A DNA stretch of 64,000 nt from a virus (taxonomy: Duplodnaviria; Heunggongvirae; Uroviricota; Caudoviricetes): IMG/VR virus record IMGVR_UViG_3300010163_000008, positions 1 through 64,000 of that record. One strand, given 5' to 3'. A model generated the notes under the pieces. It worked only from the letters and a program-made list of their open reading frames with translations, did not search any database and was not told where the DNA came from. The translations under genes were made by a program, and so were the position numbers. Shown here one piece after another: positions 3,276 to 12,507 of the stretch. Within the stretch, counting starts at the first letter, position 1. Each line of letters begins with the position of its first letter.

Positions 3276-3695
3276 ATGATAGCCATATATACTTCTTACT
3301 TTGGGAATATGAAAAAATTACCGCCTGACGAAATAATACCAGTGTCTATTGCTGGTAAGTCTCCCGACTGGTTTACTGGTTATAAGTATAAACCCTTAGT
3401 TTCACAATACGATTGGTGGAGTCAGTGGAAGAATCATCCCGATAGGGATGGAGTGGAGGGTAGGCAGTTCTATATAGAATCTTATTATAACAATGTACTT
3501 ACAAAGCTTGACCCATTTAAAGTTTATTTTGATTTGATAGATATTTCAAGGCAAGATTTTGATGGAGGATATAAGGATATTGCTCTTGTATGTTATGAAA
3601 AACCGGAACAATTTTGTCATAGGCATATCGTAGGGCGCTGGTTATATCACTACTTAGGGGACTACTTCTTAGGAGAGTGGGGGACTAAAGATTGA
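3276..3695 (+). CDS. hypothetical protein
   Basis: ORF with aggaga RBS. Confidence 0.3.
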   Translation: MIAIYTSYFGNMKKLPPDEIIPVSIAGKSPDWFTGYKYKPLVSQYDWWSQWKNHPDRDGVEGRQFYIESYYNNVLTKLDPFKVYFDLIDISRQDFDGGYKDIALVCYEKPEQFCHRHIVGRWLYHYLGDYFLGEWGTKD

Positions 3696-4006
3696 CTATA
3701 AGGTATAATGTAATGATTTGCCCATTCAAATTGTGGGGACGTACTATACAGAATCCCTTAACCATTATACGTGAACGTATGTTTGAAGGTGTATCAATCA
3801 CACACTATAGCAGTACTATAGGTCATGTCATAGGTAATAGTGTTAGAGTAGGTTCAGACGGATTTTATGCAGACATAGGTATAGTGAATTATTATGGAAA
3901 TACAAAATTTGAATTTAAGGATATAAATTGGAATGGTTTTACGTGCAACGAAAATAAATTGGTGATAGAATCTATATTGCGGATAATAATGAGGGAAAGG
4001 ACATAG
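3692..4006 (+). CDS. hypothetical protein
   Basis: ORF overlapping previous stop by 4 nt. Confidence 0.25.
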   Translation: MTIRYNVMICPFKLWGRTIQNPLTIIRERMFEGVSITHYSSTIGHVIGNSVRVGSDGFYADIGIVNYYGNTKFEFKDINWNGFTCNENKLVIESILRIIMRERT

Positions 4007-4184
4007 TAGGAGGTATATATGGCTTGTTTGAATGTGGTAGACCACTGAGAGAAAATAAGTGACTGTCAACAATTTTATATGACATAATAATAACGACTGT
4101 TGTACAAAATGGAAACCAGTCGTTATTATTATTTAAATGCGTTTGGCATATAAATCCTTAACGAAACTTTTTGTAAAAATTCAC

Positions 4185-4213
4185 TTGACGAAATGAAAAA
4201 ATGTGCGTATAAT
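4185..4213 (+). promoter_or_regulatory. sigma-A type promoter (TTGACG-17-TATAAT)
   Basis: ttgacg 4185-4190, 17-nt spacer, tataat 4208-4213; precedes the nrdH-nrdD block. Confidence 0.55.
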
Positions 4214-4257
4214 ATAGGTAGAAGGAAAAATAATTTTAAACACAAAAATATAAAGGA

Positions 4258-4482
4258 GTGCGATTAAAATTGTATAGGATTATTGGTTCTAAAGGTTGTA
4301 CTCGTTGTGAAATGATAAAAAACCTTTTTGATTCTAAAGGTATTAAATATCAGTACGACCTAATTAATGAAACGCCTGATAGGGATATAATCTTACAGCT
4401 AGCAAGTGCGCATAAGATTACTAGCTATCCTATCGTACTAGATGAAAGTAATTCTATAGTAACTGATTTCAGCAAAATCTAA
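4258..4482 (+). CDS. nrdH: NrdH-like glutaredoxin/thioredoxin-fold redoxin
   Basis: CTRC (CxxC) active site near N-terminus, small size, immediately upstream of ribonucleotide reductase gene. Confidence 0.6.
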   Translation: MRLKLYRIIGSKGCTRCEMIKNLFDSKGIKYQYDLINETPDRDIILQLASAHKITSYPIVLDESNSIVTDFSKI

Positions 4483-4498
4483 CAGGAGTTGATAGCAT

Positions 4499-7399
4499 AT
4501 GCCTTATTTTAAAACTTCATATGAACAAGAGTTTGATGACCTATATATGTACCTTAAATCTAAATATCCTAAAGAAGTATGGAATCAAGAGGGCATTGGG
4601 GAACAAACTGATTTAGGTAAGTTCAGTAAAAAATTTTTTGAAACAGAAATTACAACTACCGCTGACGTGTCTGTAGACGCTAATAGTAATGTGGATGATA
4701 TGACGGTAGTAGCTTATGAGAATGAGCTTGCAAAACCTTCCACACGTCTTAATTCTCTTTATCTACTATGGAAATATGCTCGTAAGTTATATGATACTAA
4801 AGTAGCAAATGATATTGTAGAACGTGAGCTTGCGGGTGATTATTACATCAATGATATGTCAAATGTACAAAAACCTTACTCCTATGATGGAGATACACTG
4901 ATTTGTGTTAAGTGTGAAGGTAAAATTCAGTACATGACAATGAGAGAACTATTTGAAAAATATCAAAGTAGAGTAATAAAGTTAGAGGATAGAGAACAAA
5001 TTAATCTACGAGACGTAGAAATATCAGTAATGGATTCTGGTAAGTTTGTTAGTCTATTGTACTCTATACGCCATAAGACAAATAAGTATATGGTTTGTAT
5101 AGAAACAGGAGATGGACGTTTTTTGTATGTCACCTCTGACCATCCTGTAATTCTTGCAGATGGCACTGAGGTTGAAGCTAGACATATTAAAGTTGGCGAT
5201 ACATTAGCTACAGGGTATACAGGATTCGAGTTTGATACTAAATCTGTAGATAAGGTGATTTACTCATTAATCAATGCTTGTAGTACAGGCGCAGATACAG
5301 AAGCGCTTTGTAGTTTACTTGTTCCAATCTACGACAAGCTTCTTAAGGCTGTAACTACAGTAGTTGGTGAAGGTGAAGAAGAAGTTGTACTAGACCTTGA
5401 TGTTGCATCATATAAGTTTGCACAACAGATTTGTGAGGCATTTAATATATGTGGGGTAAGTTGCGGTATTTATGTAAATAATGCAGGTGACGGATATAAT
5501 GTAAAAGCTACATTTAATACCCCTGTTGATAATAAAGTTAAAGCTATAAACACTCGTGTTTGTACAGATGAGTTTGTATATGATATTACAACATCTACAG
5601 GAACGTTTTATAGCAATGGTTTGAAATGCCATAACTGTTATAACTTTAGTACATATGATGTAATGACCAAAGGACTTCCTTTTGTTAATAAGATTGCTTC
5701 ACGTCCACCTAAACATCTATCTTCATTCTGTGGGCAAATGGTTCACTTTACAAGCTATGCAAGCAATCAGGTTATGGGTGCTGTAGGGCTTGCAGATTTG
5801 CTAATAGTAATGAGCTATTATGTAAAGAAAGAACTTGATACGTTACCTACTAATCCTGATTATGTATGGACATTCGTTAAGCAAGAGTTGCAGAATCTTA
5901 TCTACTCAATGAATCAGCCGTTTAGGGGTGGTCTACAGAGTGGTTTCTATAACGTGAGTGTGTATGATAGTTACTTCCTTGACACACTAATTCCTGATTA
6001 TATCTTTCCTGATGGAACTACACCAGATAAGGCATTGGTACAGAAGATACAAGATATTTTCCTCGACCTTATGAATGAGACGATGAGGATATCGCCAATT
6101 ACATTCCCTGTAACAACTGCTAACTTCTGTATTGATGAAGATAATAATATACTTGATAAAGACTTCCTTGAGTATATTGCAAAGAAGAATCAGGAATGGT
6201 GCTTCATAAACATCTACGCAGGAAATACAGCAACACTAAGCTCATGCTGCTTTGAAGGCAGTCAGCCTGCTATCATTCGTGTTAATGGTACAGTACATTA
6301 TATGCCTCTCAAAGAAATATTTGATATGGTAGACGATAGTGATATGGAAACACTATACGATGGTAGATGGGTTAAAGCACGTCATACACAAGCGTCTACA
6401 AAAAGTAATCTGTATAAGATTACATTAGTGAATGGTAAAACAATGACTGTAACAAAAGACCACCTTCACCCAACAATAAATGGTGTTTTGCCTTCTTCTG
6501 AATTAACTACAGATGATTATATTGAGGTAAATACTAAATCAGTTGAGGGGACACAAAGCAATGGCGTTAAATTGGATTATGAGTCGGGTTATAATCTCGC
6601 AACTTGTGTAGCAAAGAATTTGAACTATTGCTTGATGGATAAATATACTGTGAAGGATAGTAATGGGCAGCGTTGTTTTGCTCCTTCTTGTCTCAATGAA
6701 AGCATTATTTTTAGAAGCGCTATTGTAGATGTTATTAATCAGTCTGGTAATGATAAACGTAAATATGTTCGTACATATTCTAAACAATATGTAGAATCTA
6801 TTGAGATGTTACTTACTTCACTAGGTAGAATATCCTTTATTGAAAAAGATGGTGAAGAGTATGTCATAACATGGGACAAGACTGATTATGACGGTGAGAT
6901 TCGCAAGTGCGACAACAAAACCTATATTAAAATCCAGTCTATAGAGCAAGTAGAGAACAACGAAAAAATGTTTGTGTATTGCTTTGAGATGGACGATAAA
7001 GATAAACCATACTTTGTATTGCCCAACGGTATTGTGACGCACAATTGCCGTCTACGTTCAAATAAAGACAACATGTACCTTGGTTATTCAAATAGCTTTG
7101 GTTCTGGTGGCACACAGATTGGTAGTTTTGGCGTAGTTACTGTAAATCTTCCTCGTATAGCTATTAAGGCTAAAGGCAACTATGACAAGTTTATGGAGCT
7201 ACTTGATGATACTGTAGAACTTGCTATTAAGATTAACCACGTAAAACGCTATATACTTAAGAAACGAATTGATTGCGGAGCATTACCACTGTATACACAT
7301 GGTTTTATGAATCTACAAAAACAATACGCAACGGTGAACCGTATCACTCGCCGTCATATTACTTTACCATCTCGTCAATGGGGTCACAAGTGTGGCTAA
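4499..7399 (+). CDS. nrdD: anaerobic (class III) ribonucleoside-triphosphate reductase NrdD, exon 1, containing two in-frame inteins; true 5' exon probably ends near 7391
   Basis: Flanking sequence continues as NrdD in the ORF at 8014-8490 (glycyl radical RVVGF and CPVCG zinc ribbon). Two Hint-domain insertions each show block B TxxH (SDHPV, KDHLH) and a terminal HN followed by Cys (CHN|C, THN|CRLRS). Confidence 0.75.
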   Translation: MPYFKTSYEQEFDDLYMYLKSKYPKEVWNQEGIGEQTDLGKFSKKFFETEITTTADVSVDANSNVDDMTVVAYENELAKPSTRLNSLYLLWKYARKLYDTKVANDIVERELAGDYYINDMSNVQKPYSYDGDTLICVKCEGKIQYMTMRELFEKYQSRVIKLEDREQINLRDVEISVMDSGKFVSLLYSIRHKTNKYMVCIETGDGRFLYVTSDHPVILADGTEVEARHIKVGDTLATGYTGFEFDTKSVDKVIYSLINACSTGADTEALCSLLVPIYDKLLKAVTTVVGEGEEEVVLDLDVASYKFAQQICEAFNICGVSCGIYVNNAGDGYNVKATFNTPVDNKVKAINTRVCTDEFVYDITTSTGTFYSNGLKCHNCYNFSTYDVMTKGLPFVNKIASRPPKHLSSFCGQMVHFTSYASNQVMGAVGLADLLIVMSYYVKKELDTLPTNPDYVWTFVKQELQNLIYSMNQPFRGGLQSGFYNVSVYDSYFLDTLIPDYIFPDGTTPDKALVQKIQDIFLDLMNETMRISPITFPVTTANFCIDEDNNILDKDFLEYIAKKNQEWCFINIYAGNTATLSSCCFEGSQPAIIRVNGTVHYMPLKEIFDMVDDSDMETLYDGRWVKARHTQASTKSNLYKITLVNGKTMTVTKDHLHPTINGVLPSSELTTDDYIEVNTKSVEGTQSNGVKLDYESGYNLATCVAKNLNYCLMDKYTVKDSNGQRCFAPSCLNESIIFRSAIVDVINQSGNDKRKYVRTYSKQYVESIEMLLTSLGRISFIEKDGEEYVITWDKTDYDGEIRKCDNKTYIKIQSIEQVENNEKMFVYCFEMDDKDKPYFVLPNGIVTHNCRLRSNKDNMYLGYSNSFGSGGTQIGSFGVVTVNLPRIAIKAKGNYDKFMELLDDTVELAIKINHVKRYILKKRIDCGALPLYTHGFMNLQKQYATVNRITRRHITLPSRQWGHKCG
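4880..5635 (+). mobile_element. intein 1 in NrdD (approx; N-terminal boundary at SYDGDTLI or CVKCEG)
   Basis: block A-like S/C-x-x-x-D-T-L-I, block B VTSDHPV, C-terminal FYSNGLKCHN then +1 Cys; about 245 aa with a central ~130 aa insert. Confidence 0.55.
6248..7045 (+). mobile_element. intein 2 in NrdD (approx)
   Basis: begins at the second Cys of TATLSSCC, block B VTKDHLHPT, ends IVTHN followed by CRLRS extein; about 266 aa with a central insert that may be a degenerate homing endonuclease. Confidence 0.55.
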
Positions 7400-8013
7400 C
7401 GGGGAAGGCTAAGTTATCTAAATAATATGCTAATCCCGTGGGAAGGGGTCTAATAAGGCTCAACCTGTATCGACTAGTTACGTTGAGTAACGTAGGGCTA
7501 TTATTGACACATAGCTCGAAAAGGTAATAGTATCATTAAAGATGATATTAAGAGATAGTCAGTACCATGAGAAATCATAGGTTTCCCTTACAACATAGGG
7601 GTGTTAACGGTATCAAAGAATGTATTGACTTCATGGGAATGTCAATACTCAATAAGGACGGGCAGGACTTCTGTAAGAAGGTTTTACAGGCAATTAATAA
7701 AAATAACGACAAAGCGGATGCCAAATATAAGTACGCACACAACCTAGAGCAAACGCCTAGACAGTTGGGCAATAGTGACATAAACCTATAAATCACTATT
7801 CAAAATCCCTTTTAATTGACTTGGAGTGCCAGAGATGGCTAACAGGGCGCAAGTTTAAATACAGCGTGAACGACTAAATAAAGGGACTTCATTAGGTAAA
7901 TAATATGAAGGTGCGATAGTCTGACCTCGTGATATAATCTAAAAATGAAACACGAGAGGGAATGTCGAAGAACTTCCCCGCCAATATAATATGTTGGTCA
8001 TATAAGTAACAGA
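7392..8013 (+). ncRNA. group I self-splicing intron interrupting nrdD (boundaries approximate: 5' splice after U7391; 3' end at G7996 or G8014)
   Basis: NrdD coding sequence resumes in frame at about 8000; in-frame TAA right after exon 1 (7397-7399); group I core-like elements gaacgactaaa (about 7876) and gatagtctgacc (about 7916) resembling the conserved R/S (P7) sequences; T4 nrdD is known to carry a group I intron. Confidence 0.55.
7567..7791 (+). CDS. small ORF inside the nrdD intron (74 aa), no recognisable homing-endonuclease motif
   Basis: ORF track only. Confidence 0.15.
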   Translation: MRNHRFPLQHRGVNGIKECIDFMGMSILNKDGQDFCKKVLQAINKNNDKADAKYKYAHNLEQTPRQLGNSDINL

Positions 8014-8490
8014 GTGAGCGAAAACAGTGCGATTAAACTTGCAACTAAAGATAAGTTGCTTAAATATCAGGACACTTATGAACTATATTCAAATCAATTC
8101 ATACCACTTATTACAGAAGCAGACCTATTAGACCGTCTACGTCTACAAGGAATGTTTGATTCTGAGTTTAGTGGTGGTAGTATTCTACACTGCAACGTAG
8201 ATTCACCTGTAGAAGATTATCACGATATCATGAGAATGATTGAGTGTGCAGTTAAGATGGGTGTTGTGTATCACGCGATTAACTATAATCTACAAAAGTG
8301 TGAAGATGGTCATATGAGTGTAGGTAGGCATGAGGTATGTCCTGTATGCGGTAAGCCAATCACTGATAACTATATCAGGGTTGTGGGCTTTATCGTGAAT
8401 GTGAAGAACTTTCACAAGGTACGTAGGGACGTAGATTATGCTAACAGACAGTTCTATGAAGGTTCTGACGTAGGTAAACTTAAACAGTAA
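8014..8490 (+). CDS. nrdD: NrdD exon 2: C-terminal glycyl-radical domain and zinc ribbon
   Basis: HEVCPVCG zinc ribbon and IRVVGFIVN glycyl radical motif (RVxGY/F); frame is open from 7990 so exon may start at 7997. Confidence 0.75.
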   Translation: MSENSAIKLATKDKLLKYQDTYELYSNQFIPLITEADLLDRLRLQGMFDSEFSGGSILHCNVDSPVEDYHDIMRMIECAVKMGVVYHAINYNLQKCEDGHMSVGRHEVCPVCGKPITDNYIRVVGFIVNVKNFHKVRRDVDYANRQFYEGSDVGKLKQ

Positions 8491-8974: not shown

Positions 8975-9745
8975 ATGTCACGATATAAGATTGGAGCAAC
9001 AGATGGAGGGGACGCAGGACTTGATTTATCTTGGGTTTATAGGCTGAATGATGTAGATGGAGCAGTCGTTATTACTAAAAATATTACTCCATTATTTCAA
9101 GAAGCAGTCTTAGCAAATAAAGATAAGCTCATTGTTCATGCAACAATAACAGGTTTTGGTGGAACAAAGATAGAACCTAACGTACCCAAGGTGGATGATA
9201 ATTTTGATGCTCTTGCTACATTAATCAGCAATGGGTTTCCACAAGCTAAAATAACTATCCGTATCGACCCTATTATACCAACACCAAAAGGAATACAAAG
9301 AGCGTTCAGCATATTTAAAAAAGGCATTGACAATGGGTTCTCAAGGTTTAGAGTAAGTATTATTGATATGTACCCACACGTTAGAGAGCGTTTTAAAGCC
9401 GCAGGCTTACCGTTACCGTATGGCGATGAGGGATTTTCTCCAAGCACAGAACAAATTAAGGCTGTAGATGATATGTTAACGGCTGTACTTACATACTGTA
9501 AAACAAAAAGTAATACGCCTAGAATTGAGTGTTGTGCCGAGCCAAAGTTAAAAAATGCGATTCAGTGTGGATGTATCGGTGGATTTGATTTAATGCTTTT
9601 AGGGCTTAATCCGTATGAGAGTAACGATGTTGGGTATCAGCGTAAACATTGTATGTGTTATTCTGGTAAGACAGAGTTGTTAAAATCTAAAATTCCATGT
9701 TCTCATGGTTGTATATATTGCTTTTGGAAAGGAGTAACAAAATGA
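8975..9745 (+). CDS. hypothetical protein with C-terminal cysteine cluster (CMCYSG ... CSHGCIYC)
   Basis: ORF; Cys-rich C-terminus suggests metal or Fe-S binding. Confidence 0.3.
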   Translation: MSRYKIGATDGGDAGLDLSWVYRLNDVDGAVVITKNITPLFQEAVLANKDKLIVHATITGFGGTKIEPNVPKVDDNFDALATLISNGFPQAKITIRIDPIIPTPKGIQRAFSIFKKGIDNGFSRFRVSIIDMYPHVRERFKAAGLPLPYGDEGFSPSTEQIKAVDDMLTAVLTYCKTKSNTPRIECCAEPKLKNAIQCGCIGGFDLMLLGLNPYESNDVGYQRKHCMCYSGKTELLKSKIPCSHGCIYCFWKGVTK

Positions 9746-10011: not shown

Positions 10012-10195
10012 AAAGATGATACAATCTACAAAATCAAGAAAATATATTCGTAAATGCGGTGTATGCGGTGTACGATATGAACAATCAGAAATGCAAAGGA
10101 ATAAAGATTCACCAAACGGTTGGATTTGTCAAGATTGTATTGTAGATAATAACCCAGAGCAATATTATGATTGGGGGTTATACCCAAACTTTTAA
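9998..10195 (+). CDS. hypothetical zinc-ribbon protein
   Basis: CGVCGV ... CQDC. Confidence 0.3.
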   Translation: MNKDEKMIQSTKSRKYIRKCGVCGVRYEQSEMQRNKDSPNGWICQDCIVDNNPEQYYDWGLYPNF

Positions 10196-10208
10196 GGGGA
10201 GATACATA

Positions 10209-10571
10209 ATGTTTCGTGTTATTATTGCTGGTGGAAGAGATTTTGATAACTATGACCTTTTAAAATCTACAATGGATAAGTTACTCTCAAACAAAGCCAC
10301 GAATGATATTTGTATTGTTTGTGGTAAAGCTAAAGGTGCTGATACATTGGGTGAGTATTATGCTAAAGAGCGCGGTTATCAAATCGACTATTATCCAGCT
10401 AAATGGGATAAGTACGGTACATCGGCAGGGTACTTGCGTAACTGTGAAATGGCGCGTGAATCAGATGCTTTAGTTGCTTTTTGGGACGGCATGAGCAAGG
10501 GTACAAAACACATGATAGACGTGGCAAGGAGATACCATCTACAAGTAAGAGTCAAGAGGTATATAAAATGA
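10209..10571 (+). CDS. SLOG-family protein (DUF2493-like)
   Basis: MFRVIIAGGRDF ... IVCGKAKGADTLGE ... ALVAFWDGMSKGT pattern typical of DUF2493/SLOG Rossmann-like phage proteins; ATG at 10209 after RBS. Confidence 0.4.
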   Translation: MFRVIIAGGRDFDNYDLLKSTMDKLLSNKATNDICIVCGKAKGADTLGEYYAKERGYQIDYYPAKWDKYGTSAGYLRNCEMARESDALVAFWDGMSKGTKHMIDVARRYHLQVRVKRYIK

Positions 10572-11734: not shown

Positions 11735-12049
11735 ATGACTAAAACATTTCCTATGGCATATATTGAAGAAAGGGTTAGGGATTTAACTAACGTTGAGTAT
11801 TCTAGCGCAGTTGAAGATGATGATGGCGTTATTGAATATATCATTATCTTTTCTGATGTAGATGGTAGGTTCTACAAAATGCAATATAAAATTGACCTTA
11901 CCGGAAAGAAATACCCTAACCCTTGGCGCACATTAGAAGAAATGACATGTGTTGAAGTATATAAAGAAGAACACATTAAATATCGTCTTGACCAAAAGTT
12001 TGACAAATATTGGGAATATAGACAAGAGGATTGGAGGGAAAAATCTTGA
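11735..12049 (+). CDS. hypothetical protein, paralog of 13360-13635
   Basis: shared SDVDGRFY/QDVDGKYW, PW and CxEV segments with the 13360 ORF. Confidence 0.3.
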   Translation: MTKTFPMAYIEERVRDLTNVEYSSAVEDDDGVIEYIIIFSDVDGRFYKMQYKIDLTGKKYPNPWRTLEEMTCVEVYKEEHIKYRLDQKFDKYWEYRQEDWREKS

Positions 12050-12507
12050 ATATATTAGGTACACAGTATACACTGAACAATCATGCGTTTGAAATATATA
12101 TAGCTGGTTGTTCTGGTAAACCACATTGTTATGGTTGTCATAATCCTGAGTCATGGGACTTTAGTGCGGGGCATGTAGATAATGAGTTTTTCCGAATAGC
12201 CATTGCTGAGAAAATAGAAGCCTTTGACCCTATGATTGATAACATCATGATTTTTGGTGGCGAACCTAATGACCAAAAACTTGATGAGTTGGAAGACTTC
12301 TTGAAGTATTTGAAACGATTCAACAAGCCTATTTGGTTATTCACACGCTATGGCATTGAAGAAGTGCCAGCATTTGAAAAAACATTATGTGACTATATTA
12401 AATGCGGTGCGTATTTAGCTAATATGGTTACTGATGATAACATACAATATGGCATTAGACTAGCCACATCGAACCAGAAAATCTACAAGAAGGGAATTGA
12501 TTACTAA
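12031..12507 (+). CDS. nrdG: anaerobic ribonucleotide reductase activating protein NrdG (radical SAM)
   Basis: IAGCSGKPHCYGCHNPESW Cys triad in NrdG-like spacing, about 155 aa, in same early region as nrdD. Confidence 0.55.
   Translation: MEGKILNILGTQYTLNNHAFEIYIAGCSGKPHCYGCHNPESWDFSAGHVDNEFFRIAIAEKIEAFDPMIDNIMIFGGEPNDQKLDELEDFLKYLKRFNKPIWLFTRYGIEEVPAFEKTLCDYIKCGAYLANMVTDDNIQYGIRLATSNQKIYKKGIDY

Follow-up and report, generated by a model that had tools for sequence, protein, structure and literature searches.

The reductase gene most often split in a survey of phage reductases was nrdD (PMC3653736). The same survey describes genes in which several elements have accumulated: nrdE of Brochothrix phage A9 holds three introns and an intein-encoded endonuclease, four elements altogether, nrdE of Bacillus phage SPbeta an intron and an intein, nrdD of Lactococcus phage 949 an intron together with intein remnants, and nrdD of Clostridium phage c-st an intein (PMC3653736). 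Among gut 'Jug' jumbo and crAss-like phages, 95 of 104 genomes have an nrdD gene broken into fragments, four at the most; these phages have small group I introns without an open reading frame (ORF), about 206 nt long on average, as well as Intein_splicing domains, and metatranscriptome reads support splicing at part of the sites (PMC12880540). Here we describe the nrdD locus (4499-8490) of a stretch of 64,000 nt from a virus of the Caudoviricetes, positions 1 to 64,000 of IMG/VR record IMGVR_UViG_3300010163_000008, which is called the window below. Very probably this locus is one functional gene for the class III (anaerobic) ribonucleotide reductase of the phage, carrying four self-splicing elements, namely two ORF-less group I introns and two class-1 inteins. 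Since surveys already report phage reductase genes with several elements, it is a new instance of a known phenomenon.

Like the genes of A9, SPbeta and phage 949, the window gene brings group I introns and inteins together in one phage reductase gene. However, the A9 and SPbeta genes are class Ib nrdE while this one is class III nrdD, the insertion sites and element lineages of all three differ from those found here, and the four elements of the window are without endonucleases. The phage also differs from the Jug group: its source contig is about 117 kb long, its polymerase is of the DnaE type, and nothing in the phage collection matches its DNA closely. The intron of phage T4 nrdD (sunY) belongs to the same ribozyme class and lies in a gene of the same family, but T4 nrdD has one intron and no inteins, whereas the window nrdD has two of each.

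How is the gene laid out? An earlier note on this DNA, made by a model from the letters alone, had proposed that nrdD is spread over two ORFs, 4499-7399 (966 aa) and 8014-8490 (158 aa), and both exist and match Pfam NRDD. It had taken the roughly 600 nt between them (7399-8014) for non-coding sequence. This is not the case, as the stretch contains a small ORF (7567-7791) with an NRDD match of 30.6 bits at profile positions 360-414, and the coverage of the profile is contiguous over the three ORF pieces, reaching 414 in the small ORF and going on with 416-561 in ORF 8014-8490. Because the small ORF is the very NRDD piece that is missing between both large ORFs, the gap is read as two interruptions around a real exon. 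ORF 4499-7399 extends 64 nt into the first of them before it meets a stop codon. When 4499-7335, 7599-7758 and 8017-8490 are joined, they form a frame of 3471 nt for a precursor of 1156 aa, and the precursor minus residues 128-379 and 584-849 is an NrdD of 638 aa. The core idea of the note, that nrdD was invaded both by inteins and by group I intron sequence, was right; the invasions number four with two introns, where it had counted three with one. The parts of the gene are as follows, with the evidence for each in brackets.

4499..4879, plus strand: nrdD exon 1, extein segment 1, precursor aa 1-127, ending ...NVQKPY (homologue alignment; Shine-Dalgarno caggag upstream)
4880..5635, plus strand: intein 1, 252 aa (Ser1, block B TSDH, C-terminal HN, +1 Cys)
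5636..6247, plus strand: nrdD exon 1, extein segment 2, precursor aa 380-583, CYNFST...TATLSSC (best Pfam NRDD stretch; gap-free alignment)
6248..7045, plus strand: intein 2, 266 aa (Cys1, block B TKDH, C-terminal HN, +1 Cys)
7046..7335, plus strand: nrdD exon 1, extein segment 3, CRLRSN...KQYATV, last codon split gt/g (homologue alignment)
7336..7598, plus strand: putative group I intron 1, 263 nt, without ORF, terminal G7598 (sub-threshold Rfam match, covariation)
7599..7758, plus strand: nrdD exon 2, 160 nt, G VNGIKECIDFMGM...AHNLEQTP (NRDD 360-414, gap-free alignment)
7759..8016, plus strand: putative group I intron 2, 258 nt, without ORF, terminal G8016 (model R1, covariation)
8017..8490, plus strand: nrdD exon 3, SENSAIKLA... 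to the stop, with zinc-ribbon cysteines and RVVGF (NRDD 416-561, 86.5 bits)

The reconstruction agrees with intact relatives. Uninterrupted homologues found in a search of a large protein collection have 629-639 aa, with identities of up to 76% at 98-100% coverage, and the alignment of the 638-aa protein with ten of these (58-76% identity) runs through all four junctions without a gap. After removal of the inteins these read NVQKPY/CYNFST and TLSSC/CRLRSN (the slash marks the junction), and after joining of the exons QYATV/GVNGIKE and NLEQTP/SENSAIKLA, the last being identical to most of the aligned homologues. All four lie within invariant or near-invariant blocks of NrdD; P126-Y127-C128 and T327-S336 of the mature protein are invariant in the homologues. 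Exon 2, with its 53 codons, holds the invariant residues G429, G432, E435, H475, E478, Q479 and P481. Class III is indicated by NRDD matches in all three pieces, by C332, C589, C592 and R602-V604-G605-F606, and by a NrdG-like neighbour. Among these residues, the zinc-ribbon cysteines C589 and C592 and the glycyl-radical motif R602-V604-G605-F606 are invariant in the homologues, and C332 aligns with C290 of T4 NrdD. For this residue alignment the T4 protein was rebuilt from the annotated T4 record, and it reproduces the residue numbers C79, C290 and G580 of T4 NrdD.

Is the gene, interrupted as it is, still of use to the phage? A second contig (L001) has the same four elements and 83% nucleotide identity over the whole gene, and no stop codon or frameshift occurs in the 1156 codons of either copy. 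Between the two, dN/dS is 0.003, 0.010 and 0.017 for extein segments 1, 2 and 3, 0.027 for exon 3, 0.14 for exon 2, 0.06 for intein 1 and 0.13 for intein 2, at a dS of about 0.5-1.3 over the segments (about 1 for most, about 0.5-1.1 for the exteins). This pattern of substitution indicates that the nrdD gene is still under strong selection. A metagenome scan with the mature protein gave only 20 loci, none of them with introns at these two sites. For the product of ORF 4499-7399 (P0046), an exact look-up gave no entry.

The two insertions in the first large ORF had been assigned by the note to the Hint type, and the intein models do match both of them: against Pfam Intein_splicing (PF14890, gathering score 35.8 bits), intein 1 scores 44.0 bits and intein 2 scores 37.4 bits, each alone above the gathering score. 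The alignment of the exteins to intein-free NrdD, which the note had suggested, sets the boundaries with gap-free junctions. In precursor numbering, intein 1 has S128, TSDH, H378-N379 and C380, and intein 2 has C584, TKDH, H848-N849 and C850. The ends KCHN/C and VTHN/C, the TxxH form of block B and the LSSC/C start of the second intein had all been read correctly. For the start of the first intein, the note had offered SYDGDTLI or CVKCEG; the first, beginning with Ser128, holds and the second does not, and the intein of homologue P0105 at this site likewise starts PY/SY.

Both inteins appear to be shortened forms of longer relatives. Intein 1, which matches the Pab PolC intein of PDB with an E-value of 1.8e-6, is homologous to the 361-aa intein at the PY/C site in P0105, with 39% identity over the N-terminal region. 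It falls short of that intein by about 109 aa, block C included, and its LAGLIDADG endonuclease region is deleted or degenerate. Intein 2 is allelic with inteins of 345-348 aa and of 156-158 aa at SSC/CRL in nine homologues, and it is 25-35% identical to the 345-348-aa relatives. Compared with these it has lost about 80 aa, including a 59-aa segment after the first LAGLIDADG motif; GDGS of that motif is replaced, and the second motif departs from the consensus of the full-length relatives. The full-length relatives retain two LAGLIDADG motifs, with Pfam LAGLIDADG_3 in P0007 and P0023, while neither intein of the window has a Pfam endonuclease match at E up to 1. The intein families at PY/C and SSC/CRL in P0105, P0002, P0007 and other metagenomic homologues have their insertion sites and homologous Hint domains in common with the window. 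Inteins have entered both sites more than once in this NrdD clade: SSC/CRL is occupied in nine of the listed homologues and in locus L179, and PY/C in P0105 and in locus L034. Set against T4 NrdD, intein 2 has its +1 Cys at T4 Cys290, and intein 1 has its own beside T4 Cys79/80. A third NrdD intein site is seen in homologue P0106 (residues about 228-547), where GIQ/C...GN/SGFYN corresponds to position 228/229 of the mature protein here.

For the introns, the Rfam group I model (RF00028 Intron_gpI, gathering score 50 bits) was used. Scans of the whole window at the gathering score and at E up to 0.01 gave nothing, and intron 1 was found only by a local scan by E-value, at 7326-7581 with 33 bits and E 1.7e-6, along the full-length model and under the gathering score. 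The search of the gap with a group I model, as proposed in the note, thus returns a match, a sub-threshold one. In the P1 helix of this match U7335 pairs with G7350, and U7335 is the last exon base that the protein alignment demands. The helices of intron 1 are listed below.

7331-7337/7348-7354: P1
7357-7362/7524-7529: P3
7367-7397: two extra hairpins, CCAU/AUGG and GGUCAC/GUGGCU
7399-7466: P4-P6
7471-7476/7556-7562: P7
7477-7491: P7.1
7495-7517: P7.2
7530-7548: P8
7565-7581: P9

The order P7, P7.1, P7.2, P3', P8, P7' is that of group IA introns. The only 3' site of intron 1 that restores the frame is after G7598, where a P10 of 5 bp is also at hand, as GGGUG, the first bases of exon 2, could by reading of the sequence be bound by the guide strand immediately 5' of the P1 G. 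G7581, the end of the Rfam alignment, was considered as the 3' splice site and rejected because the frame shifts there. The intron of L001 is 70% identical and keeps every helix, with 13 compensatory double changes across P3, P4, P6a, P7.1, P7.2, P8 and P9; P7 is uninformative in this comparison because it is invariant. A search of viral contigs with the P7 strands of intron 1 yielded eight more loci. In a plain MAFFT alignment of the 3' domain of ten sequences, among them Enterococcus phage EF1, 99.2% of the cells in P7, P7.1, P7.2 and P9 are paired, versus 29-37% with slid partners, and 15 of the 24 pairs of the domain change on both sides.

The pairing of P3 departs from the Rfam alignment, which uses the strand just 5' of P4 and marks it as non-canonical. 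That candidate was rejected, as the strand belongs to a local hairpin that covaries in L001 and in L159, while the covarying partner of P3' is 7357-7362. The hairpins at 7367-7397 are kept with compensatory changes in both of these loci, at a place where group I introns do not often have peripheral insertions. We treated them as such an insertion because an optional P3.1 element of group I introns is mentioned in the literature (PMC3873408). A distant search with intron 1 gave only partial matches, in unannotated gaps of three Enterococcus phages, and a long pattern from its P5 had no match in IMG/VR. A match of 19 nt in a giant-virus contig (L082) was put down to chance, there being no further similarity. 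Neither intron 1 nor intron 2 has an ORF of at least 40 aa inside its own boundaries, and thus there is no intron-encoded homing endonuclease.

A group I fold is better supported in intron 2 than in intron 1. The support does not come from Rfam: with intron 2 alone (286 nt, E up to 10) there was no group I match but only noise (DUF3800-XI and HOTTIP_2). The minimum-free-energy fold gives P1 with the U7758·G pair, P2, P3, P4-P6, P8 and three P9 hairpins, and P7 crosses P3 as a pseudoknot. The two elements that the note had called P7-like, gaacgactaaa and gatagtctgacc, turn out to be the two strands of this P7 helix. There is no P7.1 or P7.2, and intron 2 was for that reason placed in none of the subgroups (IA1, IA2, IA3 and so on). 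The helices of intron 2 are the following.

7755-7760/7765-7770: P1
7771-7800: P2
7806-7812/7880-7886: P3
7820-7823/7843-7846: P4
7828-7839: P5
7847-7867: P6
7871-7876/7917-7923: P7
7887-7910: P8
about 7926-7999: P9 helices

A pattern made from the P7 strands of intron 2 matched 73 loci of viral contigs, and a covariance model of the P3-P8 core, here called R1, finds 93 sites in 75 sources among the IMG/VR loci, the window scoring 133 bits with the core at 7794-7926. Over 77 distinct core sequences, 94.9% of the cells are paired, versus 32-42% when the strands are slid, and 29 of the 33 core pairs show changes on both sides. Eight R1-positive loci other than the window were compared with RF00028, and all stayed under the gathering score; for comparison, the T4 nrdD intron has 105 bits. 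Some loci (L101, L085/L154, L113, L148 and L112, from the set L084-L155) have three R1 copies within about 1-1.5 kb. In a near-identity DNA search of the phage collection with the whole nrdD region, nothing matched but a 47-nt piece of the intron 2 core (7842-7888, from P4' to P8), which has 98% identity with an unannotated contig of a phage from human faeces (MT835539.1).

The nearest relatives of intron 2 occupy the same site. Most telling are two metagenomic phage contigs (L166 and L167, from ERR3179189 and ERR3179284), whose NrdD is 72% identical to that of the window: an R1-type intron scoring 121 bits interrupts their gene exactly between EQTP and SENS, as here, and its conserved 3' end, ...GUAACAGAGU(U)G, is that of intron 2 as well. 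The 3' part of their intron includes an ORF for an HNH_3 endonuclease (about 200 aa), whereas intron 2 of the window is ORF-less, and their nrdD allele has neither intron 1 nor inteins. By this comparison of sequences, intron 2 is an ORF-less version of the L166/L167 element. Exon and guide strand covary in P1, being ACGCCU/GGGC here versus ACCCCU/GGGGG in L166: the ACG/ACC difference in the exon upstream of the splice site is synonymous, and the change in the guide strand matches it.

The T4 nrdD intron, which the note had brought in as a precedent, is a fair analogy as far as the gene and the ribozyme class go. The R1 model weakly matches its core (28 bits, E 4e-4). However, it lies near T4 residue 173, equivalent to about 205-217 here, while the introns of the window are at 428/429 and 481/482, so that the T4 site is more than 200 residues away from either. 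It is also about 1 kb long and encodes the GIY-YIG endonuclease I-TevII (core at gene nt 503-734, I-TevII ORF at 774-1550), whereas both window introns are ORF-less, and its Rfam score of 105 bits compares with 33 bits or nothing for the latter.

If the elements work as their structure predicts, the whole locus would be transcribed as a single pre-mRNA, in which each intron would fold as a group I ribozyme. Free guanosine would attack after U7335 in intron 1 or U7758 in intron 2, each U standing in a U·G pair of P1, and the freed exon would then attack after the terminal G, G7598 or G8016. Exons 4499-7335, 7599-7758 and 8017-8490 would be ligated in this way into the 3471-nt frame. From the 1156-aa precursor, intein 1 (Ser128...Asn379) would be shed onto +1 Cys380 and intein 2 (Cys584...Asn849) onto +1 Cys850 by standard protein splicing, and the NrdG-like product of 12031-12507 would presumably activate the resulting 638-aa NrdD. 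As the homing endonucleases seem to be gone from all four elements, these have the look of late-stage remnants, passed on vertically, of homing events in the past.

Several points weigh against one functional gene with four self-splicing elements. Splicing, of the RNA as well as of the protein, is a step that we infer from sequence. Neither intron attains the Rfam gathering score, as intron 1 has 33 bits against 50 and intron 2 has no match. In intron 1, two hairpins separate the 5' strand of P3 from P4, which is not the commonest group I layout. The covariation alignment of intron 2 was fitted to the model, with its P7 strands fixed by the search pattern, and its P1 (5-6 bp) and P10 (about 3 bp) are short. 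Finally, the complete arrangement of four elements is seen in only one other locus, L001.

What else could the locus be? It might be a decaying pseudogene, in which the insertions are inactivating and a working reductase is no longer made from nrdD. The want of a working homing endonuclease in all four elements and the low Rfam scores of both introns would fit such decay. But the extein dN/dS of 0.003-0.03 at a dS of about 0.5-1.1, with the reading frame intact in both lineages, speaks against it; the catalytic motifs are all intact, the splicing residues of the inteins are conserved, compensatory changes maintain the helices of the introns, and the NrdG-like partner gene is retained. We therefore regard a pseudogene as very improbable. 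Another explanation is a gene split without RNA splicing, its three pieces being translated separately and assembling as subunits. Functional split reductase genes are documented, such as nrdA of Aeromonas phage Aeh1, which is split by mobE (PMC3653736), and in-frame ORFs do start at ATG 7567 and GTG 8014. However, genes of the window have AGGAG or GGAGG sites upstream, whereas neither the ATG of the exon 2 ORF nor the GTG of the exon 3 ORF has a Shine-Dalgarno sequence, which argues against separately translated fragments. In the gaps between the pieces, moreover, ribozyme folds are conserved and covary, and their U·G pair and terminal G lie at precisely the positions that restore the frame. 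A 53-aa fragment from the middle of the barrel is implausible as an independent subunit. We give this explanation hardly any credence.

The reading of the note, in which one group I intron spans U7391 to G7996 or G8014 (about 600 nt) and any internal ORF would be intron-encoded or meaningless, has in its favour that the quoted P7 strands are real and that U7391, G7996 and G8014 are the bases stated, but it is barely conceivable, since the internal ORF 7567-7791 is NrdD (profile 360-414) with residues invariant in the homologues and exon 2 is under purifying selection (dN/dS 0.14), since there are two separate catalytic cores (Rfam 7326-7581 and R1 7794-7926), and since joining U7391 to G7996 or G8014 would delete invariant NrdD residues and add junk (with G8014, 53 conserved residues dropped and 19 non-homologous ones kept), whereas a gap-free NrdD needs U7335/G7336, G7598/G7599, U7758/A7759 and G8016/A8017.

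The surroundings of the gene contain two further features that bear on the reductase.

4258..4482, plus strand: glutaredoxin-like small ORF directly upstream of nrdD (weak Pfam Glutaredoxin match, 19.9 bits, under the cut-off)
12031..12507, plus strand: NrdG-like activase (radical SAM, 4Fe-4S), partner of NrdD (Pfam Fer4_12 44.6 bits, weak Radical_SAM)

The order of a glutaredoxin-like ORF followed by nrdD is also found in L166, and L001 and L166 both have an equivalent Fer4_12 gene of 153 aa downstream of nrdD. By Pfam there is no free-standing endonuclease gene near nrdD in the window. The stretch from nrdD to the NrdG-like gene encodes a DUF1848 protein (8975-9745, 72 bits) and a protein of the YAcAr/SLOG family (10167-10571, 60 bits). 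In L166, unlike the window, only an HNH_3 gene, the second one of that locus (in the region 4976-6716), is found between nrdD and the NrdG-like gene.

The locus leaves the current understanding unchanged, reductase genes being a known hot spot for such elements, but it bears on annotation. Gene callers report two fragments, a 966-aa "intein-containing NrdD fragment" and one of 158 aa, and the middle exon of 53 codons escapes them; the true product would be one enzyme of 638 aa. The Rfam gathering score misses both introns and, with them, a phage intron family of at least 93 sites in IMG/VR loci. Because standard group I detection passes over both introns and a whole family, intron loads in phage metagenomes are probably undercounted. 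The gene also offers a compact example of a late stage in the homing cycle, its four elements lying in the four most conserved motifs of one essential gene; if it is one functional gene, the elements would have been stripped of their endonucleases, yet kept competent for splicing by selection on the host gene.

A comparable interruption is seen elsewhere in the window. The gene of the DnaE-type polymerase is split, with 25489-26937 matching Pfam DNA_pol3_alpha 4-103 and 27226-29367 matching 104-259, and the second ORF has no Shine-Dalgarno sequence. The gap of 288 nt (about 26938-27225) has an Rfam group I match of 24.7 bits (E 2.8e-4, at 26917-27216). It is probably a third ORF-less group I intron of another type, with P7 CGAGUA/UACUCU. 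Positions 1-676 of L167 hold a fragment of a DnaE-type polymerase with Hint/Intein_splicing matches.

Two further readings, weighed jointly, are unlikely. One is that protein splicing in NrdD is redox-gated, and the other is that introns 1 and 2 and the dnaE intron represent phage group I lineages which standard models systematically miss. Redox gating is suggested by the +1 nucleophiles of both inteins, cysteines that align with the active-site cysteines of T4 NrdD (mature C128 near C79/C80, and C332 with C290), and by the retention of all four endonuclease-less elements in two lineages (dS about 0.5-1.3). Intein 2 stands in a Cys(-1)-Cys(1)...Cys(+1) context. If gating were true, an oxygen-sensitive reductase would mature only under reducing, anaerobic conditions, and the elements would not be mere passengers.

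An intron of the intron 2 type is also found in a gene for a family-B DNA polymerase, at 3316-7725 of locus L083 on an IMG/VR contig of 334,687 nt, where R1 scores 112 bits at 6251-6397. The upstream ORF of this polymerase appears to enter intein-like sequence after ...PIVGDS/FTADTPLF, and the gene looks like another one with both an intron and an intein.

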